Of a stretch of 44,786 nt of DNA, positions 2,388 through 44,786 are shown in pieces. A program made the position numbers and the translations under genes. The notes under the pieces are model-generated. The model was not told where the DNA came from. It was given only the letters and a program-made list of their open reading frames with translations, and ran no database searches. This DNA comes from a virus: the IMG/VR virus record IMGVR_UViG_3300025528_000002, positions 1-44,786 of that record; one strand, 5' to 3'. How positions within the stretch are numbered: the stretch's first letter is position 1; every line of letters starts with the position of its first letter.

Positions 2388-2406
2388 GACGGAAATACAA
2401 GTAAAT
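2388..2406 (+). promoter_or_regulatory. Operator-like 19-mer GACGGAAATACAAGTAAAT, copy 1
   Basis: Exact direct repeat, also at 2418-2436 and 2735-2753. The 13-nt core recurs at 2493-2505. Confidence 0.6.
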
Positions 2407-2417
2407 TTAAGAAAATA

Positions 2418-2436
2418 GACGGAAATACAAGTAAAT
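2418..2436 (+). promoter_or_regulatory. Operator-like 19-mer, copy 2
   Basis: Exact repeat 30 nt downstream of copy 1. Confidence 0.6.
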
Positions 2437-2492
2437 ATTGGCATTTTGCTTTAAAATGCTCGAATTTAAGCCAAAATGCGCTTTTACAAAAA

Positions 2493-2505
2493 GACGGAAA
2501 TACAA
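2493..2505 (+). promoter_or_regulatory. Operator-like core GACGGAAATACAA, copy 3 (partial)
   Basis: 13-nt core match about 30 nt upstream of the cro-like start codon. Confidence 0.5.
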
Positions 2506-2534
2506 TACATTTATATCAACGGAGGTGAGAAAAT

Positions 2535-2789
2535 ATGCTAGATAAAAAAACTCTTGGGAAAATCATCAAGAGCAAAAGAAATGAAATTGGGATGACGCAA
2601 GATCAGCTATCTTCTGCAACCAGATTATCCAGAAACTATATATCGGATATTGAAAACGGTAGATATATGCCGAGTATCAATTCTCTTTCCAAAATAGCTG
2701 TCTGCCTGAATATGGATTTAAATTTGTTAAAAATGACGGAAATACAAGTAAATAGCGATGGTAAGGATGGGGAAGTGTCGGCATCATGA
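2535..2789 (+). CDS. XRE-family Cro-like early regulator
   Basis: 84 aa. HTH_XRE (MTQDQLSSATRLSRNYISDIENGRYMPS). RBS GGAGGTGA 8 nt upstream. Divergent from the repressor. Confidence 0.8.
   Translation: MLDKKTLGKIIKSKRNEIGMTQDQLSSATRLSRNYISDIENGRYMPSINSLSKIAVCLNMDLNLLKMTEIQVNSDGKDGEVSAS
2735..2753 (+). promoter_or_regulatory. Operator-like 19-mer, copy 4, inside the 3' end of the cro-like gene
   Basis: Exact 19-mer. The flanking aatGACGG...AAAT also matches copy 1. Confidence 0.55.
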
Positions 2790-3055
2790 TCCAAGTCCAA
2801 ATCGATGAACAAGAAGTTCGTAAGTTGTATCTGCAAAAGCTTGAAGAAAAGCTGAAAGAGATTGATAGAGAGCTAGTTTTTTGGGACACAGCTGAACTCA
2901 AACGTCGTACATGTTTAAGTTGGAACACCATCCAGAAAGAGTTTTTCTTCGACTCTCGTTTCCCCAAGTACAAGGTTGGTGGCAAGTGGATATTTCCAGC
3001 TAAGGAATGCCAAGAATTCTTGCTTACTTGGCTGAAAGAGCAGCCAAAGAGCTGA
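2786..3055 (+). CDS. Early protein, putative DNA-binding (excisionase/DUF771-like)
   Basis: 89 aa. ATGA overlap with the cro-like stop. The family assignment is from memory of similar Firmicute phage proteins only. Confidence 0.45.
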   Translation: MIQVQIDEQEVRKLYLQKLEEKLKEIDRELVFWDTAELKRRTCLSWNTIQKEFFFDSRFPKYKVGGKWIFPAKECQEFLLTWLKEQPKS

Positions 3056-15421: not shown

Positions 15422-15580
15422 GTATACCTTTCACGTATACTTTCTGTTAATTTTGTATACCTTGTAAAATTTGGAAATGTATACTTTGTATACTTTAAAA
15501 AAACATCAAAGTATACACGAAGGTATACGCCAAAATCCTTGATATATCTATATTTATTATTATTTGTATACTTTGTATAC
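15422..15580 (+). repeat. Array of nine GTATAC cores, seven as GTATAC(C/T)TT in one orientation; candidate iterons, origin or promoter array
   Basis: Cores at 15422, 15435, 15455, 15479, 15488, 15511, 15523, 15566 and 15575. TGTATACTTTGTATAC occurs twice. The surrounding 307-bp gap is AT-rich and non-coding. Confidence 0.6.
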
Positions 15581-15716
15581 CTTTAATAGAAGAAAAATAA
15601 TAAATAGGTAATATAGAGAGATTAGGCACTTATATGTATTACCTAAACGCCTAATTTTCATATATACGCGCGCGCGATGATTTGATAATTGAACGAGCGA
15701 GGGTTGGTGAATTGAA

Positions 15717-29348: not shown

Positions 29349-32300
29349 ATGGCAGATGTTGGCGTGTTGCGTGTTTCGCTTGGATTGGATAGTGCGAATT
29401 TTACGCGTAGCCTTGCAGAAATAAACCGGAAACTGAAAGCTGTTGAAAGTGAATTTAAAGCGGCTGGCGGTTCCGTTAAGGGTTTTGAAAATACCTTTGA
29501 AGGTTTGCAGGCCAAGTCAGATATGTTGACTAAAAAAATAGCCTTGCAAAGCGCTAGAGTGCAAGAGTTGAAGCGTAGATACGATGAATCGGCGGCAACT
29601 AAAGGAAAAGAAGCAGCAGAAACGGAAAAATTACTGACTCAGTACAACAAAGCGGTTGGTGATCTCAAAAAATTCGAGAATGAGCTTCAGCAAACTAGCG
29701 CCAAGCTTGATAAATTGTCCCAAGACGTCAACAAAAATGTTACAGTCTGGGATAAAATGCATGCAAAATTTAGCGAAGTTGGCCAACGAATGCAAGACTT
29801 AGGGAGCCGCATGCAATCAGCTGGTCAAGGTATCGCCACGTCATTTGGATCAGTATCAACAGCAATCGGCGGCGCGCTTGGGTTTGCCGTCAAAAAATCT
29901 ATGGATTTTGAAGCACAAATCGATCGTGTTGGTGCCATTGCTGGGGCCACCCCGGCTGAACTGAATAAGTTAAAACAATCAGCCCTTGATCTTGGAGCAT
30001 CAACGTCTAAATCGGCAACAGAAGTAGCCCAGGCACAGGAAATCATGGCGGCAATGGGTTATAAGACAAATGAAATTATTGCAGCTTTGCCGGGGGTTAT
30101 CTCTGCGGCCGAGGCTAGTGGTGAGGACATGGCGCTTGTAGCCGATACAGTATCAGCAGCGCTTAATTCCTTTGGATTAAAGGCGAGTGAAGCAAGCCGG
30201 GTAGCGGATATACTGGCACAATCGGCGAATGATTCTGCGGCTGGTATCGAGGACATGCAGTACACGTTCAAATATGCAGCGCCGGTTGCACATCAATTGG
30301 GGATGTCGTTGGAACAGTTGGCAGCCGCAACAGAGATCATGAGTAATAGTGGAATTAAAGGCGAACAAGCTGGAACTACATTACGAGCTGCATTGTTGCG
30401 CTTGGCTTCTCCACCTAAAGCCGCGGCAAATGAACTGGAACATTTAGGCGTGTCCATCACGGATTCGCACGGAAAGATGCTTCCGTTTAGCAATATCATC
30501 GGTCAATTGCGGGAAAAAACAGAGGGCATGAGCAATGCCCAAAAGACAGCGGCGTTGTCGACTATTTTTGGAACCGAAGCAGTCAGTGGTATGTTGGCAA
30601 TCGTTGAAGCTGGTCCACAAAAACTTGATCAGCTTACAAAATCACTCCAAAATTCCGGCGGTGCCTCACAAGAAGCAGCAAAGAAGATGAAAGACAACCT
30701 CAAAGGTGCACTCGAAAATTTAAGTGGTGCCTTTGAAACAGCGCAAATTACGATCGGAAATGCGTTGGCTCCGGCTATCGAGAAAGTAGCAAATGCGTTG
30801 CAAGGATTGATCAATTGGTTTAATAACCTATCACCATCTATGCAAAAATTCATTGCGATTGGTGCTGCTGTAACTGCTGTATTTACGGGAATAGTTGCGG
30901 CAATTGGTGTTGTATTAGCGATCATTGGCGGGGCGGCAAATGGAATTGGAGCTTTAACATTAGCATTCGGAACGATATCAGGTGCTGTTGCGGAAGCAGG
31001 AGGCGCTTTTGCATTATTAACCGGACCGATAGGAATTGCAGTGTTGGCCATAGGTGGTTTGATCGCTGCAGGGGTTGCGCTTTACACGCATTGGGACCAG
31101 ATTAAGGCGTTTTTGAGCAATACCTGGAATGCGATTGCTCAAACAGCTGTTACTGTATGGAATGGTATTAAATCTTTCTTCGCCCAATGGGGTGCAACAC
31201 TATTAACTTCACTTGCTGGACCGATCGGTTTTGTGGTTTTACAGATTTCAAACCGTTGGAATGAAATCAAAAATACGACATTAACCATCTGGAACGGCAT
31301 TATTACTAGTCTATTAAATTTGTGGAACAGTTTAAAAACTAGTGCATCGAATGCTTGGAATGGTATTAAAAGCGTTGCATCATCTGTGTGGAACGGGATT
31401 AAATCCGCGGTCACAAGTATTGTGAGTGCCTTGGTATCATCTGTACAAAATTATTACAACAACATGAAAAGTGGCATTACAAGCATTATGAATGGAATCA
31501 AATCCATCTTATCAGGTGTTTGGAATGCCATTAAAAACGTTGTATTAGGTGCCGTCTTATTAATACTTGATTTAGTCACGGGAAATTTCCAAAAGCTAAA
31601 ATCTGACTCTCAGGCTATTATGAATAACCTGAGAAGTGCTATACAAAGCATTTGGAATGGGATTAAGTCCGTTATTTCAGGAACCGTCAATGCGATAAAA
31701 GGCTTTGTAACCACCGCCTGGAACAACATTAGAACCAATACATCTAATGCTTGGAATTCAGTAAAATCTATTTCCTCAAGTGTCTGGAATGGAATAAAAA
31801 CACTGGTTTCTTCCGTGGCAAACGGGATTAAGTCGGTTGTATCTTCTGCATGGAATGGGATTAAATCCATCACTTCAAGTGTTTGGAATGGAGTCAAATC
31901 AACTACTTCAAGCGTTTGGAATGGGATAAAATCTGCTATTTCTAGTTCGGTTAATGCTGCTAAATCAGCCGTAAGCAGTGGGTTTTCCGGAATGAAAAGC
32001 GCTGTTTCATCGGCCATGAGCAGCATTCGGTCTACGATCACAAGCATGTGGAATAGCGCCGTGAGCTTTTTGAGAGGGATTGATCTTTATTCTATTGGTC
32101 AAAACATCATTCAGGGGCTTGCTAATGGGATATCATCAATGGCCTCAGCTGTTGTAGACAGAGCGAGAAGTATTGCCAATTCTGTCACGAGCACGATCCG
32201 GAAGGCGTTGGATATCCATTCTCCATCACGCGAAACAGAAAAGTTAGGTAAATATACAACGGAAGGTTTTGCAAAAGGGATTGCGTCTAGCAATACAGCG

Positions 32301-38791: not shown

Positions 38792-39208
38792 ATGGAAAGA
38801 TTAGATGTTGCATTCAAAACCGGCGCAGCCATTGTTGGTGGTCTTGCCGGTTTGATTTTTGGCGAATCAATTGGATTGCTTGTTGCGTTATTTTGGATGT
38901 CGGTTATCGATTACGGAACTGGAATGGCTGCCGGTTACACAGAAAAAACGTTATCTAGCAAGGTTGGGTTTAAAGGCATTACTAAAAAAATGATGATCTT
39001 TGTAATGGTTGCCCTTGCTCACCAAGTCGATAGCGCACTCGGGACAAAAAATATGTTACGAGATGCGACTATCGTTTTTTATATGGCCAACGAGCTGCTA
39101 AGCATTTTTGAAAATGCAGGACGAATGGGAGTACCAGTGCCGGAACGACTTACACAGGCGGTAGAAGTGTTGAAAGGAAAAAGTGGGAAAGGAGAGGATA
39201 GAAAATGA
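38792..39208 (+). CDS. Holin (phage_holin_4-type)
   Basis: 138 aa, 3-4 TM segments. DYGTGMAAGY...SSKVGFKGITKKM...FYMANELLSIFENAGRMGVPVP matches the family pattern. Confidence 0.8.
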   Translation: MERLDVAFKTGAAIVGGLAGLIFGESIGLLVALFWMSVIDYGTGMAAGYTEKTLSSKVGFKGITKKMMIFVMVALAHQVDSALGTKNMLRDATIVFYMANELLSIFENAGRMGVPVPERLTQAVEVLKGKSGKGEDRK

Positions 39209-40056
39209 CAGGGAAAATCGTTGACTTGTCGCATCATCAACCTTCAAATAAAATAAATTGGTCTTTGGCAGCTAAAGATATTGATCTTGTTATTATTCGT
39301 GTTCAATACGGATCTAAAACAGAAGATAGAGAGCATAAAAATCATGTAGCAAATGCTAAAAAATACGGTATTCCATTCGGTCACTATGCTTACGGATGCT
39401 TTGTTAATGTAAATGACGCTATAACAGAAGCAAATGACTTCCTTAAACGTGCAGATAAAGACGCTAAATTTCTTGTACTAGATGTTGAAGATGATACTGT
39501 TAAGGCATGCGGAACTAAAAACCTTGCACAAGCAAGTCAAGCATTCATAGATACATGTAAAAAAGCTGGTTATAAGTTGGGCTTTTATACATCTCATGAA
39601 TTATATAAGCAATATGGGTTAGATAAGGTGAAAGCTGACTTTTTATGGCTACCTAGATATGGTTCTGATAACGGTACACCACAAACAAAACCTGCTTATC
39701 CTTGTGATCTTTGGCAATATAGCCAAAAATGCAAAGTAGCATGGTATGACGGTTTTGTTGACTTGAATTTGTTGAACGGTTCTAAGCCTTTAGATTGGTT
39801 CACAGGCAAACAAGCACAGGTTGCTGCTGAAAATAAACCGAACAAAGAGGAGGAGATTGAATTGTATCAACCATCTAATCAAGCTATCGTAAACAGTACA
39901 GCTGTTGTATTATCCAGACTCGAAAAGAAAGATCTCGGGGCCATTAGTCCGGAGTGGCGGGAGAAGCTTCAAAAAGGTGAACTGATAGTTAGTGATGCAA
40001 TCGGTTTAATTTACGTTGCTTTAGAAAGGGAACTTATTCAAGGCAGCAATAAATAA
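39205..40056 (+). CDS. Endolysin: GH25 muramidase with a C-terminal putative wall-binding domain
   Basis: IVDLSHHQ, VIIRVQYG, GHYAY, LVLDVEDD. About 70-aa C-terminal module after a linker. Confidence 0.88.
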   Translation: MTGKIVDLSHHQPSNKINWSLAAKDIDLVIIRVQYGSKTEDREHKNHVANAKKYGIPFGHYAYGCFVNVNDAITEANDFLKRADKDAKFLVLDVEDDTVKACGTKNLAQASQAFIDTCKKAGYKLGFYTSHELYKQYGLDKVKADFLWLPRYGSDNGTPQTKPAYPCDLWQYSQKCKVAWYDGFVDLNLLNGSKPLDWFTGKQAQVAAENKPNKEEEIELYQPSNQAIVNSTAVVLSRLEKKDLGAISPEWREKLQKGELIVSDAIGLIYVALERELIQGSNK

Positions 40057-40063
40057 GAAAAAG

Positions 40064-40099
40064 GCCCCTCTCCTAAAAGGAGAGGGGCAAAATTTTTTT
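40064..40099. terminator. Bidirectional intrinsic terminator
   Basis: GCCCCTCTCC-taaaa-GGAGAGGGGC flanked by an A-run upstream and a T-run downstream. Confidence 0.8.
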
Positions 40100-40138
40100 A
40101 TAATATCTATTGACCTAAGGCAACAGATATTATATAAT
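40100..40138 (+). promoter_or_regulatory. Near-consensus sigma-A promoter clamped by a 9-bp inverted repeat
   Basis: TTGACC (40110-40115) - 17 nt - TATAAT (40133-40138). ATAATATCT (40100-40108) and AGATATTAT (40125-40133) are perfect inverted repeats. Confidence 0.65.
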
Positions 40139-40169
40139 AAAGACATAGAAAGGAGGTGACAAAAAGGGG

Positions 40170-40313
40170 ATGGTGAACAAAATCCAACAGATTTTAGACA
40201 TCATAGAAAAAATAACAAACATTTTAGGTTTCATCTTAACAGTAATCGCACTTCGAAAGGTGAAACATAAAAAGAAAAAGCGACGCTCCTCAAAAAAGAA
40301 ACGTCGCAAGTGA
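40170..40313 (+). CDS. 47-aa peptide with a hydrophobic core and polybasic tail (toxin-like)
   Basis: MVNKIQQILDIIEKITNILGFILTVIALRKVKHKKKKRRSSKKKRRK. GGAGG lies 13 nt upstream and GGGGA is adjacent. Below the track cutoff. Confidence 0.4.
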   Translation: MVNKIQQILDIIEKITNILGFILTVIALRKVKHKKKKRRSSKKKRRK

Positions 40314-40326
40314 AAAATCTAATAGG

Positions 40327-40351
40327 AAGCCCTCTCGAAAGGGGGGCTTCT
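40327..40351. other. GC-rich hairpin between the peptide ORF and the antisense promoter
   Basis: GAAGCCCTCT-cgaaa-GGGGGGCTTC (10 bp with G-U pairs). No T-run on the + side. TATTAGATTTTT follows on the - side. Confidence 0.55.
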
Positions 40352-40358
40352 ATAAAGA

Positions 40359-40388
40359 ATCATATCATCCCCTGAATAACAATGTCAA
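40359..40388 (-). promoter_or_regulatory. Convergent (antisense) sigma-A promoter with extended -10
   Basis: Minus strand: TTGACA (40388-40383) - 18 nt ending in TGa - TATGAT (40364-40359). Confidence 0.5.
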
Positions 40389-40549
40389 AATTATTATGGA
40401 TCACAAATATTGTTCTTGCGATAAACGCAATAACATTCTTTGCTACAACAGATTTTCATCATCTAGGTTTATTGGACACAATTTTATTGGGATCAATCAT
40501 TTTGTGGGTTGTAACACTAATATTTTTCTTTTATTCCACTAGAAAATAA
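40382..40549 (+). CDS. Possible 55-aa two-TM membrane peptide
   Basis: MSKLLWITNIVLAINAITFFATT...IILWVVTLIFFFYSTRK. No convincing RBS. Confidence 0.25.
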   Translation: MSKLLWITNIVLAINAITFFATTDFHHLGLLDTILLGSIILWVVTLIFFFYSTRK

Positions 40550-40563
40550 AGGAGGTGGAAACA

Positions 40564-40809
40564 TTGAAATTCCAGTTTGATTCGAGGGAGGAATTAGAGG
40601 ATTTTATAAGAAATGAAGTCCTAACCACTTCCGAAGTGAAAGAAATACTCAATGTTACAAAACAGCGATTACATGCGCTGGTTTCATCTGGCAGGATCAC
40701 ACCGATCAAGAAAACGAAAAATGATAGCCTGTTTTTTCGAGATGATGTAATGAAGTTAAAACCGGAGTTAGAAGAACTCCGGAAAAAATATCGGCCTTAT
40801 GAAGAATAA
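40564..40809 (+). CDS. Small HTH DNA-binding protein (excisionase/MerR-type HTH_17-like)
   Basis: 81 aa from the TTG 8 nt after GGAGG (the track gives a GTG at 40555). LTTSEVKEILNVTKQRLHALVSSGRITPIKK. Confidence 0.65.
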   Translation: MKFQFDSREELEDFIRNEVLTTSEVKEILNVTKQRLHALVSSGRITPIKKTKNDSLFFRDDVMKLKPELEELRKKYRPYEE

Positions 40810-40872
40810 AATTTGGTGGATAAGGAAAAACGAAAATAATTCCACCTAAAACTGTCCTTTCTTGCTTTCCGG

Positions 40873-40910
40873 AAGCCCTTTTCCGTATTGGAGAGAGGGC
40901 TTATTTTTTT
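40873..40910 (+). terminator. Intrinsic terminator after the HTH gene
   Basis: AAGCCCT ... AGGGCTT stem followed by ATTTTTTT. Confidence 0.65.
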
Positions 40911-40913
40911 GTC

Positions 40914-40943
40914 TTGAATAAGAACGTATGTTTGTTATATAAT
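40914..40943 (+). promoter_or_regulatory. Sigma-A promoter of the WYL/YolD operon
   Basis: TTGAAT (40914-40919) - 18 nt - TATAAT (40938-40943). Confidence 0.6.
40921..40934. promoter_or_regulatory. LexA (Cheo) box 1, AGAACGTATGTTTG (one mismatch)
   Basis: GAAC-N4-GTTT in the promoter spacer. Confidence 0.55.
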
Positions 40944-40944
40944 A

Positions 40945-40958
40945 AGAACAAACGTTCT
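40945..40958. promoter_or_regulatory. LexA (Cheo) box 2, AGAACAAACGTTCT (perfect GAAC-N4-GTTC)
   Basis: Immediately downstream of the -10 element, over the expected transcription start. Confidence 0.65.
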
Positions 40959-40974
40959 TGTTAAGGTGGTTCGA

Positions 40975-41193
40975 ATGAAAGGGATGTTGTTGAATGCGAA
41001 AGAGTATAAAACTCCTTTGCTGATGGTCTATATGAATGATCAGGGAGTCATTACTGAACGCTTTATAACCATTAAGGACTTTAATGACGACTACATTAAG
41101 GCTTATTGCCACTGGAAAAAGCAGTACCGTACATTTAAGCGCAGCAACATCCTTTCCATCGGACCAGTTCGTCATCGAAGAGTGGGGGCTTAA
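40975..41193 (+). CDS. Stand-alone WYL-domain protein (72 aa)
   Basis: LLMVYMNDQGVITERFITIKDFNDDYIKAYCHWKKQYRTFKRSNILSI matches the WYL pattern (Y...R.v.P......yl.ayC...k..RtF...rIls). ATG after AAGGTGG. Confidence 0.6.
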   Translation: MKGMLLNAKEYKTPLLMVYMNDQGVITERFITIKDFNDDYIKAYCHWKKQYRTFKRSNILSIGPVRHRRVGA

Positions 41194-41195
41194 TC

Positions 41196-41549
41196 ATGGA
41201 TACAAGATATCTTCATTACGATCGAGGGAACAAGAAATGGACATCTCTTATGCTGCCAGAACATGTTGAGATGCTACGACAATTTGCTAATGAGGATTAT
41301 TACAAGACTCCAAAGCCTTTATTAGATCCATATCAGGTGCAGGAAATTGAAGAGAAGATCCATTATGCAATGGAGTATCATTATCCGGTCAAATTTGATG
41401 TCTGGTATGATGGATTCGTGGAAAGAGTGAGCGGCCACATTCATTATTTGGACCCAATTCAAAAGGAAATCCGTCTCAAAAACGATAAGGGGAATATTGA
41501 GCGAATAAAATTTGCAAATATCATCGATGTAATTGTTGAAGATACATAA
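41196..41549 (+). CDS. YolD-like protein
   Basis: 117 aa. RGNKKWTSLMLPEHVEML... and the C-terminal ...IRLKNDKGNIERIKFANIIDV match the YolD family pattern. Confidence 0.7.
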   Translation: MDTRYLHYDRGNKKWTSLMLPEHVEMLRQFANEDYYKTPKPLLDPYQVQEIEEKIHYAMEYHYPVKFDVWYDGFVERVSGHIHYLDPIQKEIRLKNDKGNIERIKFANIIDVIVEDT

Positions 41550-41646: not shown

Positions 41647-41658
41647 ATTTGTGCAGGT

Positions 41659-41688
41659 AAGAAAAAGGCCCCTCAATGAGAGGGGCTT
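41659..41688 (-). terminator. Intrinsic terminator of the leftward XRE operon
   Basis: Minus strand: AAGCCCCTC-tcatt-GAGGGGCCTT followed by TTTTCTT. Confidence 0.7.
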
Positions 41689-42197
41689 CATTTTAATATT
41701 GGAGATGCATGATAGCTGTCTGCAACTTGTTCCAAATTGGTATACGAGAAGTTATCCCAGTCAATTTTTTGAGCGGATTTCTTTGACATTTGAATTTTAT
41801 CAACAGTCTCAACAGAGTCTCCGGAGTTACTCTCGACCGTAGCTTCCCAAAAGTAAGTAATCTCGTTTACTTTATCAATCTTAAAGACCTTTTTTAAGGC
41901 GTTGGTTGTATTATAATCCACGGTTCTTTTGGTCAACCCGTCTTGCTTAACGTGGACGAGCACGATTTTTCCTCCGTCATTTTTACCGAGATCATCGTTA
42001 ATTTCTATCTTAGTTACTTTTCCAAAATGAGGATCAGCGGCCTTTTTAATTTCATCAGTTAAATTATCTTTTGATGGTTTTGCTTGGCCATCATCTCCTT
42101 TATTACCAAGAGACCCGAAAACCCCAAATACTACAATTACGACTAAAACCCAAAACCACCATTTCTTATAAAATGGTTTCTTCCTTTTTTCACTCAT
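41688..42197 (-). CDS. Membrane-anchored extracytoplasmic protein (candidate superinfection-exclusion/moron)
   Basis: 169 aa. N-terminal KKPFYKKWWFWVLVVIVVFGVFGSLG anchor followed by a 120-aa soluble domain. 4-nt overlap with the XRE gene. Confidence 0.6.
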   Translation of the reverse strand: MSEKRKKPFYKKWWFWVLVVIVVFGVFGSLGNKGDDGQAKPSKDNLTDEIKKAADPHFGKVTKIEINDDLGKNDGGKIVLVHVKQDGLTKRTVDYNTTNALKKVFKIDKVNEITYFWEATVESNSGDSVETVDKIQMSKKSAQKIDWDNFSYTNLEQVADSYHASPILK

Positions 42198-42861: not shown

Positions 42862-43989
42862 GTGATTGAATGGATTTTACCAGTTATGGTAGTAGTAGCA
42901 GCGCTTGTTCCTGTGAAAAGCAAGAGTGACAAGCAGATCATACGAGAAGTATTTGAACGAACAAGTATCAGCATTAAAAAAGGGGAATCCGTTCTTAATC
43001 CTAAATTGGTGGACAGTAGAGAAGGAAAGTATGTTTATTCGCTCCCTATTGGGCTATCCAGCGAATTCATGGAAAATATCGAATTGGCTATGAAAGAAGC
43101 ATTAAATAAAGAAATAGAATGGGAGTTTAAAAACGGTTTTCTTCATCTCAACGTGTTTGACGACAAGCTGCCAAGCAAGTGGGATTTTACTACTGATCTA
43201 AAAACAGACACTTGGGAAGTCCCAGTGGGAAAAAATCATCATGGCGTACTTTACCATGACTTTGACAAATACCCTCATATGCTCGTTGGCGGAACAACTC
43301 GATTCGGGAAAACGGTCTTTCTAAAAGTGCTCCTGGCTTCACTTTTATTGAATAAAAAAGAACATGTCAGTTTTCACTTCCTGGATCTTAAAGGCGGACT
43401 GGAATTTAACCGATACCAACACCTTAACCAAGTAAAACCTGTGGCAAGTGACCTTCTGGAAGCGTGTAGGACACTTGATGGAATCGTCGAGGATCTGAAA
43501 GAGCGAGAGCAATTTTTCAAGGAAAAAGGGATCTCAAACATTGTCGATACCAACATCCAAAAACGAACTTTCATTATTGTGGATGAAGCTGCCGAATTAT
43601 CGCCAAAGCTAGTTTCCAAAGAACATAAGAAATATGCTGAATACTGTATGAATTGTCTTGGACAGATCGCAAGGATCGGCGGGGCCCTAGGTTATCGACT
43701 CATTTACGCTACTCAGTACCCGACCCGTGAGGCAGTCCCTGGGCAAATAAAGATGAACATGGTGGCGCGACTTGCCTTTAAAATGCCTGAAAGCATGGGG
43801 AGTCGTGTGATTTTAGATGAGACCGGAGCAGAAGAATTAGAAGCTATACCAGGGCGGGCCCTGTATAAGGTGGAGAATAAAAGAGAAGTCCAGGTCCCAT
43901 ATATTAGTGATAAAACATTGGAGGGGATAATAAATGGCCTTGGCAGTAAAGAAACAGGAACGGACAGAAATGTTATTAAAAACGATTGA
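42862..43989 (+). CDS. FtsK/SpoIIIE-family DNA translocase (conjugative-element type, N-terminal TM anchor)
   Basis: 375 aa. Walker A GGTTRFGKTV, Walker B FIIVDEAAEL, and an N-terminal hydrophobic helix. Confidence 0.85.
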   Translation: MIEWILPVMVVVAALVPVKSKSDKQIIREVFERTSISIKKGESVLNPKLVDSREGKYVYSLPIGLSSEFMENIELAMKEALNKEIEWEFKNGFLHLNVFDDKLPSKWDFTTDLKTDTWEVPVGKNHHGVLYHDFDKYPHMLVGGTTRFGKTVFLKVLLASLLLNKKEHVSFHFLDLKGGLEFNRYQHLNQVKPVASDLLEACRTLDGIVEDLKEREQFFKEKGISNIVDTNIQKRTFIIVDEAAELSPKLVSKEHKKYAEYCMNCLGQIARIGGALGYRLIYATQYPTREAVPGQIKMNMVARLAFKMPESMGSRVILDETGAEELEAIPGRALYKVENKREVQVPYISDKTLEGIINGLGSKETGTDRNVIKND

Positions 43990-44554
43990 TCAGCTTGGGG
44001 TCATGACAGTTCGTCAGTTGCAGCGGATCCACGATCTCGGCAGCTATCGAAATGCTTGTCGGATTGTATCTCAATTGGAGCCATATCTACACGTTGCGCG
44101 GGGAAGGGAAAAAGTTTTTTACCTTAATAAAGAGGGGAGGGAACTAATTGGCAGCGATAAAGAGGTCAAAAAATCTATGCAGATTGAACACAAGTTATTG
44201 TTGAACGAGGTATGCATTTATTTTGGATGCCCGTCCGATTGGCGGACTGAATACAGGATTGAACATGAAGAAGAGATCACGGATATTATTGTGAGGATTG
44301 GCAGTGGAAAAAGTGTGTTGAAGAAAAGAGTAGTGGCAGATGCTTATTTCGCGGGGAATTTTGTTGAGATAGACAACACTCGACACATGAAGGATAATTT
44401 GAAGAAGATCGCTAATTATAAAGAGATTTTCAAACTAAAAAAGATCAATCCAAAATTACACTTTTTCACGACGACGATTCATCGAAAACAAAAATTAGAA
44501 AAGTGGCTAAACGGATTGGATTATCAGTTGCTAACCTTTGATGAAATAAAATAA
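43934..44554 (+). CDS. Replication-relaxation family protein (winged-helix N-terminus)
   Basis: 206 aa. EMLLKTIDQLGVMTVRQLQRIHDLGSYRNACRIVSQLEPY...VFYLNKEGRELIG fits the Replic_Relax pattern. GGAGGGG RBS. 56-nt overlap with the FtsK-like gene. Confidence 0.65.
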   Translation: MALAVKKQERTEMLLKTIDQLGVMTVRQLQRIHDLGSYRNACRIVSQLEPYLHVARGREKVFYLNKEGRELIGSDKEVKKSMQIEHKLLLNEVCIYFGCPSDWRTEYRIEHEEEITDIIVRIGSGKSVLKKRVVADAYFAGNFVEIDNTRHMKDNLKKIANYKEIFKLKKINPKLHFFTTTIHRKQKLEKWLNGLDYQLLTFDEIK

Positions 44555-44687: not shown

Positions 44688-44786
44688 AGGTTTTTAGGCC
44701 ACTTTGATATATTTTAAATGCATCAGATATGTTTAGAACACAAGTTCATCCGTGGGAACGCGAACAATATATGCAAATGTATTAAT
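44688..44786 (+). repeat. Terminal direct repeat, copy 2 (identical to 1-99)
   Basis: Same 99-mer as the window start. The window ends exactly at the repeat end. Confidence 0.95.

Follow-up and report, generated by a model that had tools for sequence, protein, structure and literature searches.

Downstream of the GH25 lysin gene in virus record IMGVR_UViG_3300025528_000002 lies a small cassette that is probably a prophage type I toxin-antitoxin module, organised like yonT-yoyJ/SR6 of SPbeta and equipped in addition with a transcriptional regulator of its own. On the sequence and comparative evidence, we assign this reading a probability of roughly 0.7. In the proposed scheme, a sigma-A promoter would drive three genes, for a toxin of 47 aa, a protein of 55 aa with two transmembrane helices (2-TM protein) and an HTH protein of 81 aa, and three layers of control would hold the toxin in check. 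A dimer of the HTH protein, bound to a palindrome over the -35 box, would repress its own operon. On the operon mRNA, the toxin stop codon is followed by an element that folds back onto the toxin AUG, as shown by covariation, and would hide the start even though the Shine-Dalgarno (SD) sequence is extremely strong. Finally, a convergent antisense RNA of ~85 nt, predicted from sequence and comparison, would show full complementarity to the final 14 toxin codons and the toxin 3' UTR. By analogy with SR6, RNase III would cut the resulting duplex, which would destroy the toxin cistron and spare the message for the 2-TM and HTH proteins. The polybasic tail of the toxin would be dual-coding, with its Arg codons providing the antisense terminator stem and its Lys codons the U-run. 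The comparative data provide precise hypotheses on a start-codon fold-back, a tail that is also a terminator, and a dedicated autorepressor.

The complete 44,786-nt stretch of DNA that was analysed is referred to as the window. The sequence-only reading of the region had listed a TTGACC-17-TATAAT promoter with an inverted repeat, a 47-aa polybasic ORF followed by a GC hairpin, an opposite-strand TTGACA-18-TATGAT promoter with an upstream TG, a 55-aa two-TM ORF, an 81-aa HTH ORF, a closing terminator and a bidirectional lysin terminator. Promoter, terminator and ORF scans recovered every one of these features (Table 1), with inverted-repeat arms of 10 bp instead of the 9 bp originally described. 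Overall, the cassette region contains nine terminator-like sites versus 0.7 expected and eight promoter-like sites versus 4.0 expected. A Sie-like gene is located nearby (41688-42197).

Table 1. Features of the cassette and its borders, in window coordinates.
Feature	Position	Strand	Basis or detail
Bidirectional terminator of the GH25 lysin gene	40064-40098	both	11-bp stem, 8 GC pairs, T-runs on both strands
Operator-like palindrome	40099-40134	+	inverted repeat and family conservation
Sigma-A type operon promoter TTGACC-17-TATAAT	40110-40138	+	11/12 consensus positions
Very strong Shine-Dalgarno AGAAAGGAGGTGA	40147-40159	+	13 nt complementary to the 16S rRNA 3' end
Fold-back 5' arm AAGGGGAUGGUGA, includes toxin AUG	40164-40176	+	complementarity
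47-aa putative toxin ORF	40170-40313	+	amphipathic/hydrophobic helix, then polybasic tail
Antisense terminator stem, 12 bp	40307-40280	-	Arg/Lys codons of the polybasic tail, then TTTTTCTTTT
Predicted SR6-like antisense RNA, ~85 nt	40352 to ~40266	-	5' stem-loop, single-stranded linker over the stop codon, terminator
GC-rich hairpin SL1	40326-40350	both	8-10 pairs, -10 to -16 kcal/mol by strand
Antisense promoter TTGACA-18-TATGAT with upstream TG	40359-40388	-	11/12 consensus positions plus TG
Anti-start element AUAUCAUCCCCUG, fold-back 3' arm	40362-40374	+	pairs with the toxin start-codon region
55-aa protein, two transmembrane helices	40382-40549	+	yoyJ position in SPbeta
81-aa HTH_17 protein, putative autorepressor	40564-40809	+	MerR-superfamily winged helix, invariant C-terminus RKKYRPY
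Intrinsic terminator ending the operon	40854-40909	+	hairpin, then U-run AUUUUUUU

The cassette belongs to a family that occupies over 100 loci in phages and prophages of many Bacillaceae genera. About 36 of 47 Bacillaceae genome loci show the operon order small peptide, 2-TM protein and HTH_17 protein, as do 72 of 74 viral contigs. The same cassette is present in Parageobacillus phage JGon-2020a, and a Bacillus smithii strain (GCA_050465705) carries a copy that is 97-99% identical. Geobacillus and B. atrophaeus are further hosts of the cassette. The position immediately after the lysin gene, which the sequence-only reading had compared to Listeria prophages, is shared by the B. smithii prophage copy, but it does not define the cassette, which lies away from the lysis genes in JGon-2020a and in Bacillus phage yong1. 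The cassette occupies the arm that separates lysin and integrase genes and is found close to prophage ends. The chances are about even that this is the first module to be recognised from a large and essentially unannotated family of type I modules in Bacillaceae prophages, in which the operon is restrained by an autorepressor, a fold-back and an antisense RNA. The versions from thermophiles (B. smithii, Geobacillus and Parageobacillus) could become tools for selection or containment.

The putative toxin combines a hydrophobic core, ITNILGFILTVIAL, with the C-terminal end KVKHKKKKRRSSKKKRRK, and 15 of its final 20 residues are Lys or Arg. It is thus a small ORF (<60 aa) with the hydrophobic or membrane-active character of type I toxins, although its insertion into the membrane is uncertain because the hydrophobic stretch comprises only about 14 residues. 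The duplex between the toxin SD and the anti-SD has a calculated energy of -19.9 kcal/mol (family mean -17.6 kcal/mol). With 13 complementary nucleotides and a highly basic C-terminal 20 residues, the ORF shows both traits expected of a yonT-like gene, i.e., an SD of at least 11 nt and a strongly basic C-terminus. In several loci the toxin ORF is cut short or interrupted and the remaining cassette is kept, and some family variants are devoid of the polybasic tail.

Homologous peptide ORFs precede the HTH gene in most loci, and dozens of them were detected at the DNA level as uncalled ORFs. Thus, the initial impression that the peptide has no homologue is correct for annotated proteins but fails at the DNA level. 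In a word-based protein search the peptide retrieved only itself and the 2-TM protein nothing, while an exhaustive phmmer search of 1.84 billion cluster representatives linked the peptide to a single further cluster, the 42-aa P0031. Pfam, NCBIfam, PHROGs and PADLOC likewise returned nothing meaningful for either protein. Two of the three cassette proteins are therefore practically missing from protein databases in spite of the wide distribution of the module. Type I toxin-antitoxin systems are under-detected because their ORFs and RNAs are left unannotated.

The family alignment of the 2-TM protein revealed a conserved (I/T)DF turn. A search for an SD in front of its gene found none, and the mean anti-SD duplex energy in 23 loci is +0.6 kcal/mol. 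Translation from a leaderless mRNA was considered and rejected, because the -10-like sequences abut the AUG and are too close for a transcription start. More speculatively, the fold-back helix could bring the toxin SD close to the 2-TM start codon, which has no SD of its own, such that ribosomes would switch between the two ORFs.

The proposed fold-back joins the toxin start-codon region to the anti-start element, which is located 3' of the SL1 hairpin and about 50 nt beyond the toxin stop codon. The complementarity is retained with different, covarying sequences in about 20 lineages, including yonT of SPbeta, and the fold-back helix is part of the minimum-energy structure calculated for the window mRNA. 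The Watson-Crick run over the own start codon has a mean length of 8.1 bp, compared to 4.0 bp when lineages are cross-paired or sequences shuffled; 10 of 11 lineages have a run of 7 bp or longer, a length that a shuffle attains with P = 0.022. New variants in a held-out viral set also keep the pairing. With the initial statistic, 17 of 27 viral loci had runs of at least 7 bp, and the missing cases are explained by G.U pairs, by elements outside the 75-nt search window or by a palindromic insertion of about 40 nt. In yonT, the corresponding pair GUGCUUGA/UCAAGCAC was found by sequence. If the fold-back is real, its occurrence in yonT is a direct prediction for SPbeta.

The antisense promoter is placed such that its -35 box (TTGACA, 40388-40383) overlaps the start codon of the 2-TM gene, followed by the extended -10 sequence TGaTATGAT at 40367-40359. 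An extended -10 sequence, TGnTATAAT, is kept at this position across the family. The RNA predicted from this promoter overlaps the last 14 toxin codons and the toxin 3' UTR and folds with a minimum free energy of -30 kcal/mol (z = -5.2; none of 200 shuffles was as good). Its terminator stem lies in the codons of the polybasic tail, and the adjoining U-run (40266-40279) is the complement of the Lys codons AAAAAGAAAAAG. In all 17 loci compared, the minus strand gives the more stable terminator helix (-15.6 versus -9.5 kcal/mol), and G.U pairs occur on this strand only. The stem sequences differ between lineages and covary. Because the antisense terminator is written in the tail codons, the tail sequence appears to be constrained by both the protein and the RNA structure; in the variants that lack the polybasic tail, the antisense terminator is not clear.

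The sequence-only reading had predicted an antisense RNA of about 290 nt with a 5' stem-loop. The stem-loop is again predicted, but the minus-strand terminator within the peptide ORF predicts a main species of only ~85 nt. A 290-nt species would then be a read-through form ending at the lysin terminator, comparable to the 215-nt read-through form of SR6. The lysin terminator, which is scored as such on either strand at 40064-40088, would probably stop antisense transcription that reads through. SL1 would serve as the 5' stem-loop of the antisense RNA and, on the other strand, as a 3' stem-loop in the toxin cistron. All loci contain it, with differing sequences, and both strands are equally stable across the family. 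A function of SL1 as plus-strand terminator was rejected, because the hairpin is not followed by a U-run.

Antisense RNAs of 70-110 nt with the same architecture were predicted in 18 loci. Applied to SPbeta, the same method predicted an RNA at 2608-2717, which reproduces the experimental boundaries of SR6 in Rfam (2612-2715). In a strict descriptor scan, the expected site accounted for 16 of 17 matches in the genome loci (836 kb) and for 43 of 45 in the viral loci (844 kb). The cis-antisense RNA that characterises type I systems is thus predicted in silico by promoter, terminator, fold and position-specific conservation in 16 plus 43 loci. A scan of the window with Rfam returned no match at the gathering threshold or at E <= 1. 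Aligning the antisense RNAs with MAFFT and RNAalifold recovered SL1 only in part, because MAFFT placed the lineage-specific stems in different registers; conservation was assessed by per-locus folding, the descriptor scan and in-register pair tables rather than by a covariance model.

The position of the operon promoter is kept in every family member, and transcription is predicted to start at about 40145. The outer 10-bp arms of the inverted repeat, TATAATATCT (40099-40108) and AGATATTATA (40125-40134), reach 14 bp inward with one mismatch. A 24-bp palindrome core, ATCTATTGACCTAAGGCAACAGAT (40105-40128), overlaps the -35 box and stops 4 nt short of the -10 box. The family consensus is ATCTATTTAC-AATT-GTAAATAGAT, and 16-24 of the 24 positions are self-complementary in more than 25 loci; in the window, the operator has a degenerate centre (18/24). 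Each locus contains a single copy of the palindrome, which is invariably found at the cassette promoter; elsewhere in the window the operator half-site is not enriched (five matches versus 7.1 expected). The half-site type tracks the recognition helix of the HTH protein across the family, and this joint variation suggests autorepression. Thus, from family conservation and covariation, the HTH protein probably autoregulates its synthesis through the promoter inverted repeat.

The HTH ORF comprises 81 codons if translation starts at the TTG at 40564; the B. smithii copy has a GTG at this position. The protein scores above the cut-off of Pfam HTH_17 (PF12728; 30.9 versus 27 bits). Its AF2 model (pLDDT 83) consists of a MerR-type winged helix followed by a long C-terminal helix (H-beta-H-H-wing-long helix). 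The best structural matches are RacA, GlnR, BldC and MtaN, with TM-scores of 0.56-0.72 (normalised to the target) and weak Foldseek E-values of 0.05-0.3, while a PDB sequence search gave no significant match to solved structures. The predicted fold resembles that of the small MerR-superfamily regulators (GlnR/TnrA, RacA and BldC) and that of Xis proteins. GlnR, TnrA and RacA act as dimers that bind inverted repeats. Different from GlnR/TnrA, RacA and BldC, the cassette HTH family carries the specific C-terminal sequence RKKYRPY. Together with the palindrome, an HTH gene with this C-terminus provides a handy genomic marker for hidden modules.

The idea that the cassette is a type I toxin-antitoxin system had already been put forward with txpA/RatA and bsrG/SR4 as models. 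The comparative evidence supports the idea but identifies a different system, yonT-yoyJ/SR6, as the closest precedent. The latter, from Bacillus phage SPbeta, is itself of type I (Reif et al. 2018, PMC5848175; Durand et al. 2012, PMC3531473). Both share the succession of toxin, GC hairpin, convergent extended -10 antisense promoter and 2-TM ORF on one polycistronic mRNA. Like the 47-aa peptide, YonT has a hydrophobic N-terminus and a C-terminal tail with about 75% Lys/Arg, and yonT is likewise preceded by an SD of 11-13 nt. SR6 resembles the predicted antisense RNA in its size of about 100 nt, its 5' stem-loop and a terminator stem and U-run within the tail codons (AAAAAGAAAAAGCG in both). The start-codon fold-back element is also common to both. 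The main difference concerns the third gene, which in the cassette encodes an HTH_17 regulator associated with a palindromic operator and in SPbeta the coiled-coil protein YonU; neither the 24-bp palindrome nor the HTH gene was found in SPbeta. Furthermore, the antisense RNA of the cassette stops short of the 2-TM start codon, unlike in the SR6 system, and the cassette family occurs in many Bacillaceae genera and not in the B. subtilis group alone.

These similarities do not extend to the primary sequence. The family profile HMMs score YonT at -3.4 bits and YoyJ at -0.1 bits, both within the distributions of shuffled sequences. The SR6_antitoxin covariance model (RF02892) reaches 128 bits on SPbeta, with a gathering score of 55 bits, but it has no match in the window at E <= 1 and none at the gathering threshold in 17 family loci. 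The resemblance to yonT is therefore one of layout and could be due to convergence.

Alternative explanations differ mainly in what they assume about the protein products. It is unlikely that the module encodes benign prophage membrane proteins, e.g., for superinfection exclusion, immunity or signalling, whose level is merely tuned by the antisense RNA, the fold-back and the HTH protein. The short hydrophobic segment of the peptide, the variants without a polybasic tail and the nearby Sie-like gene would agree with such a role, and so would the observations that YoyJ is at most a weak toxin and that one study saw only mild toxicity of YonT in E. coli. However, three stacked layers of repression combined with a very strong SD are typical of harmful products, and it is the toxin ORF alone that is repeatedly disrupted. 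Moreover, yonT of SPbeta resisted cloning, and B. subtilis requires RNase III because of two genes, of which yonT is one. Accessory lysis proteins, such as holins, antiholins or lysis-timing membrane peptides of the adjacent lysis cassette, are a very improbable identity for the small ORFs. These ORFs are indeed located directly 3' of the holin and lysin genes, and the peptide has a faint PHROG holin match (E 0.27), but they are separated from the lysin gene by the bidirectional terminator and possess their own consensus promoter. In addition, the JGon-2020a and yong1 cassettes are not adjacent to lysis genes, and the way the cassette is controlled suggests that it is expressed in the lysogen, not at a late stage of infection.

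Other explanations start from the HTH protein. Its match to PHROG 4691 (E 8e-33), which is labelled 'excisionase', a weak match to TIGR01764, the resemblance of the model to Pukovnik Xis and the location of the cassette between the lysin and integrase genes near the prophage ends would be compatible with a recombination directionality factor, with the small ORFs as unrelated cargo on its transcript. We consider this improbable, because the HTH gene, the peptide, the 2-TM gene, the antisense RNA and the operator travel as one unit, which is found beside tyrosine integrases, as in the window, and beside a serine recombinase, as in yong1. The palindrome is placed exactly on the cassette promoter and varies together with the HTH protein, as is typical of a regulator; 'excisionase' is an annotation label rather than a tested function, and the early region contains a separate weak DUF771 candidate. 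The sequence-only reading had also proposed an anti-defence operon of the acr-aca type, in which small effectors are controlled by an Aca-like HTH autorepressor. From this proposal, HTH autoregulation via the inverted repeat is retained, but the operon type itself is hardly tenable. In line with it are the strong promoter and its operator, the HTH gene as the last one of the operon, and the location 3' of the lysin gene, which this phage shares with the B. smithii prophage. Its effectors, however, would be a hydrophobic/polybasic peptide and a 2-TM protein instead of soluble inhibitors, and neither small ORF has a PADLOC, Pfam or NCBIfam match. The conserved antisense RNA and the fold-back are hallmarks of type I systems and not of acr operons, and in Listeria the peptide and 2-TM ORFs were not found upstream of the more distant HTH homologues.

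As a type I toxin-antitoxin module, the cassette would probably contribute to prophage stabilisation, the stress response or phage exclusion, and it also shares features with systems beyond yonT. The txpA/RatA system of skin and bsrG/SR4 of SPbeta are prophage systems with 3'-overlapping antisense RNAs and RNase III-dependent decay; they differ by antitoxins of 180-222 nt, by toxins without a polybasic tail and by having neither a second ORF nor an HTH gene or operator. Prophage type I toxins of Clostridioides difficile have a hydrophobic N-terminus, a Lys-rich tail and a cis-antisense RNA each (PMC7699646, PMC6563280). Their gene organisation differs from that of the cassette, and they are not known to have an HTH partner. 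Silencing of the full-length toxin mRNA by long-distance 5'-3' pairing, combined with a cis-antisense RNA, is also found in hok/Sok of plasmid R1 and in AapA1/IsoA1 of Helicobacter pylori, which have no sequence relationship to the cassette. In contrast to these two systems, the antisense RNA of the cassette overlaps the toxin ORF at its 3' end, the mRNA is polycistronic, and the 3' element would mask the start codon itself rather than the SD or a tac element.

The cassette that follows the lysin is most likely a type I toxin-antitoxin module that follows the design of yonT-yoyJ/SR6 and would have gained an HTH_17 autorepressor with its operator, while a start-codon fold-back would be common to it and SPbeta yonT. 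It stands for a large Bacillaceae phage family without annotation. The toxin, the antisense transcript, the DNA binding of the HTH protein and all other functional assignments are predicted from the sequence and from comparison between loci. The region 39000-41400 was read, its ORFs were listed, and promoters and terminators were located by a consensus scan. Every element described in the sequence-only reading is present, and the signals are real and better structured than that reading had realised. The sense promoter TTGACC-17-TATAAT and the antisense promoter TTGACA-18-TATGAT, with its upstream TG, both match 11 of 12 consensus positions, the lysin terminator scores on both strands as proposed, and the inverted repeat at the promoter has 10-bp arms that extend inward to 14 bp with one mismatch. 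In addition, the scan revealed a previously unmentioned minus-strand terminator inside the 47-aa toxin ORF; terminator-like sites in the cassette region number 9 versus 0.7 expected.

Features of the window in and around the cassette
Feature	Position	Strand	Remarks
Terminal direct repeat	1-99; 44688-44786		perfect, 99 bp
Further GAAC-N4-GTTC sites	49-60; 1402-1413; 44736-44747
Tyrosine integrase	189-1346	-
ImmA/Xre immunity pair
Divergent Xre/Cro region	2392-2754		GACGGAAATACAAGTAAATA-like repeats
89-aa ORF	2786-3055		after cro-like gene
Intergenic repeat cluster	15438-15586		TGTATAC(T/C)TTGTATAC type
Terminase and tape-measure gene
Repeats in tape-measure gene	31260-31934		x11, 33-nt periodicity
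Holin	38792-39208
GH25 lysin	39205-40056
17-bp exact repeat	40054-40070; 41658-41674		TAAGAAAAAGGCCCCTC
Lysin terminator	40064-40088	both
Promoter inverted repeat	40099-40108 / 40125-40134
Sense promoter	40110-40138
Fold-back 5' arm	40164-40176		AAGGGGAUGGUGA
47-aa toxin ORF	40170-40313	+
Predicted antisense RNA	40352 to ~40266	-
Antisense terminator	40307-40280	-	12-bp stem, then TTTTTCTTTT
Hairpin SL1	40326-40350		GC-rich
Anti-start element (3' arm)	40362-40374		ATATCATCCCCTG
Antisense promoter	40388 to 40359	-
55-aa 2-TM ORF	40382-40549	+
HTH ORF	40564-40809	+	TTG start, 81 aa
Operon-closing terminator	40854-40909		hairpin and U-run
Cheo/LexA-type boxes	40921-40932; 40946-40957		imperfect; perfect, GAACAAACGTTC
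WYL-like ORF	40966-41193
YolD-like gene	41196-41549
FtsK/SpoIIIE-like and Replic_Relax genes	42862-44554
Accessory arm, other content			YolD-like operon, Sie-like membrane protein, Xre-type HTH gene, FtsK/SpoIIIE and Replic_Relax genes

YonT was chosen for comparison because the polybasic tail of the peptide resembles that of YonT; tblastn with a YonT query sequence led to the annotated yonT gene of SPbeta, and the locus was fetched. YonT has 58 aa, and its gene is cotranscribed from the yonT promoter with yoyJ, which encodes a 2-TM protein, yonU and yonV; SR6, an antisense RNA of ~100 nt with an extended -10 promoter, overlaps the yonT 3' end, promotes RNase III-dependent decay and also occurs as a 215-nt read-through form (Reif et al. 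2018, PMC5848175). The YonT Shine-Dalgarno sequence is one of the two strongest in B. subtilis, and Lys/Arg make up 75% of the last 20 residues (reviews; Durand et al. 2012, PMC3531473). Likewise, the window toxin has a very strong, 13-nt Shine-Dalgarno sequence (AGAAAGGAGGTGA, -19.9 kcal/mol), K or R at 15 of its last 20 residues, and the same order of hairpin, antisense promoter and 2-TM ORF. In contrast, SPbeta has neither the HTH_17 gene nor the promoter palindrome of the window family. By sequence the cassette does not belong to the yonT/SR6 family: neither YonT nor YoyJ was recognised by profile HMMs built for the peptides and the 2-TM proteins, and the Rfam SR6 model RF02892 had no match in the window or in 17 family loci. 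The common design may reflect either divergence beyond recognition or convergence.

At 18 loci, a minus-strand RNA was predicted from the extended -10 box to the first hairpin followed by a T-run. Each predicted RNA is 70-110 nt long, opens with a 5' stem-loop, crosses the stop codon in an 8-20 nt linker and closes with a terminator; the stem of the latter lies within Arg codons of the tail, and its U-run is complementary to AAAAAG Lys codons. The SPbeta locus serves as a positive control, because its prediction (2608-2717) reproduces the Rfam SR6 match (2612-2715, 128 bits). The window RNA folds at -30 kcal/mol (z -5.2); it is convergent and carries a 5' stem-loop, as had been proposed, but its predicted end inside the 47-aa ORF replaces the suggested length of ~290 nt. 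A strict descriptor, in which TGnTAnnnT is followed by two stems of at least 6 bp each, joined by a linker, and then by a T-run, matched 17 times in the 836 kb of genome loci (16 at the expected site) and 45 times in the 844 kb of viral loci (43 at the expected site); the window and SPbeta are missed only because of a mismatch in their stems. The sole off-site match among genome loci (L029, 5726-5827, + strand) contains two hairpins and a T-run in addition to an extended -10 box. The stems vary by lineage (GCGACG/CGTCGC, AGCGCT/AGCGCT, GCGTATACGC), and Parageobacillus phage JGon-2020a shows a compensatory change, GCGACC/GGTCGC, at the cost of R-to-P and R-to-G in the peptide. The terminator helix favours the minus over the plus strand at 17 of 17 loci (-15.6 versus -9.5 kcal/mol), with all G.U pairs on the minus strand, and SL1 is equally stable on both. 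Strong comparative evidence thus argues for a minus-strand RNA that would end inside the toxin ORF. Some cassettes of the B. subtilis group carry a palindromic insertion of ~40 nt (GTATACTGCAAA...CAGTATAC) between SL1 and the anti-start element, which displaces or replaces the antisense -10 box; in L024, L077, L081 and L095 it lies ~30-75 nt past the toxin stop codon.

The anti-start element, represented by CACGTCCAC in the B. subtilis group, is a conserved motif 3' of SL1, outside the antisense RNA and every ORF. In the minimum-energy fold of the window mRNA it pairs with the 5' arm, including the toxin AUG. At each of the 24 loci tested, the start region pairs best with a site 38-65 nt beyond the stop codon in the 3' region of that locus, and the duplex includes the start codon; the arms are lineage-specific: GGGGAUG/CAUCCCC, GGGAGAUGAU/AUCAUCUCCC, GUGGACG/CGUCCAC, GUGGAUG/CAUCCAC, AUGCUAGAC/GUCUAGCAU, UGGAGGAU/AUCCUCCA, AAAUGGGUUGGA/UCCAACCCAUUU and, in SPbeta yonT, GUGCUUGA/UCAAGCAC. 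The longest Watson-Crick run over the own start codon averages 8.1 bp, versus 4.0 bp for cross-lineage pairings and shuffles; in 10 of 11 lineages it is 7 bp or longer (P = 0.022 for a shuffle reaching 7 bp). Held-out viral loci added about nine sequence variants with the pairing kept, some with plus-strand G.U pairs and some with the element shifted by a palindromic insertion of ~40 nt. This predicted fold-back, which is of the hok type, is a new feature common to the window family and SPbeta yonT; no description of it for yonT was found in the literature searched, and a 2019 review gives the yonT mRNA structure as undetermined. The 2-TM ORF lacks a Shine-Dalgarno sequence at all 23 loci (+0.6 versus -17.6 kcal/mol for the toxin ORF), and the 20 nt upstream of it, in the window and 22 related loci, are the anti-start element. 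One possibility is that the fold-back passes the toxin Shine-Dalgarno sequence on to the 2-TM ORF.

Alignment of family promoters on the Shine-Dalgarno sequence revealed a conserved 24-bp palindrome, ATCTATTTAC-AATT-GTAAATAGAT, which overlaps the -35 box and stops 4 nt short of the -10 box of a promoter with the optimal 17-nt spacer. In more than 25 loci, 16-24 of its 24 positions are self-complementary, and the exact palindrome was found at the cassette promoter only. The window version, ATCTATTGACCTAAGGCAACAGAT, matches it in length and position; its centre is degenerate, but it is extended outward, and this extension is the inverted repeat noticed earlier. The palindrome is linked to the HTH protein because both are absent from SPbeta and because the half-site follows the recognition helix, not the peptide type: TATAGAC..GTCTATA occurs with NVNKQR, CTATTTAC..GTAAATAG with GVTRQR. 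We infer that the HTH protein binds the palindrome as a dimer and, since the palindrome covers the -35 box and spacer, that it would repress its own operon.

Three other readings are less well supported than the toxin-antitoxin module. The sequence-only reading had offered, as the alternative to a type I system, an anti-defence operon of the acr-aca type, in which an HTH autorepressor accompanies small effectors; the peptide and 2-TM protein gave nothing meaningful in Pfam, NCBIfam, PHROGs or PADLOC. Loci with a truncated or interrupted toxin ORF in an otherwise kept cassette (L002, L007, L012, L026, L033 and others) are consistent with a harmful product, though no proof of one. A lysis-accessory role would draw on the position after the lysin, which recurs in a Bacillus smithii prophage (cassette 97-99% identical, directly 3' of a GH25 lysin) but not in JGon-2020a, which was reached via a distant DNA match and has these three ORFs and signals elsewhere. 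The excisionase reading concerns the third protein, which contains an HTH_17 domain (30.9 bits, cut-off 27) and has an E 8e-33 match to PHROG 4691, a family annotated 'excisionase'. Its AF2 model (pLDDT 83) has a winged-helix fold and a long helix at the C-terminus; the best structural neighbours are RacA, GlnR/TnrA, BldC and MtaN, with Pukovnik Xis lower down and all E-values weak; no sequence relative was found among solved structures.

The HTH protein has 29 database relatives, in Bacillus smithii, Anoxybacillus, Geobacillus, Cytobacillus, Metabacillus, Niallia and others, with an invariant C-terminal RKKYRPY. That the peptide has no homologue holds for large protein collections, which returned only itself and a single relative of 42 aa (and no match for the 2-TM protein), but related small ORFs precede the HTH gene in many loci. 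With the HTH alignment as bait, 47 loci were retrieved from one genome per species of Bacillaceae and relatives, and ~36 have two small ORFs directly upstream: one, of 31-65 aa, has a hydrophobic helix that a polybasic tail usually accompanies; the other, of 51-69 aa, is a 2-TM ORF whose (I/T)DF turn is conserved. Among 77 IMG/VR loci, 74 had enough upstream sequence, and in 72 of these a strong Shine-Dalgarno sequence precedes a toxin-like ORF. The small ORFs are missing next to more distant HTH homologues, those of Listeria, Enterococcus and Brochothrix. Toxin variants without the polybasic tail (MLDNMIKVLQIIFY...KKD, for example; L006, L009, L013, L015-L017, L036, L046) keep the antisense -10 box and SL1 and have a different long-range pairing, AGTCCT/AGGACT, conserved between codons 8-10 and the stop codon, which may be another way to terminate the antisense RNA or to close an mRNA domain. 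Upstream of its cassette, a Geobacillus proteiniphilus contig (L003) carries 15 tRNA genes in an array at 303-1985.

The window phage is temperate and siphovirus-like. Because of the perfect terminal repeat, the contig is circular or circularly assembled, with a genome of 44,687 bp, and therefore the cassette sits in the accessory-gene arm between lysin and integrase, as in phages yong1, where it adjoins a serine recombinase, and vB_BteM-A9Y. Comparison with the B. smithii prophage, in whose annotation both small ORFs are uncalled, set the HTH start. That prophage has additional genes between the HTH gene and YolD, including a SocA_Panacea gene. The next promoter, that of the WYL-like ORF and YolD-like gene, has a Cheo/LexA-type box on each side of its -10 box; GAAC-N4-GTTC occurs four times in the window versus 0.47 expected, which suggests SOS control. 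The 17-bp repeats reflect two near-identical terminators on either side of the cassette and YolD module, where modules may be exchanged by recombination. Next to the integrase of this tailed phage, the FtsK/SpoIIIE-like and Replic_Relax (replication-relaxation) genes resemble a module of a conjugative or integrative element. The three to four repeat copies in the Xre/Cro region are probably immunity operators, and the 89-aa ORF, with a weak, below-cut-off DUF771 match (E 0.007), is a possible alternative excisionase. The intergenic repeat cluster may serve as an origin or as an array of regulator-binding sites, and the tape-measure repeats encode WNGIK-type motifs.
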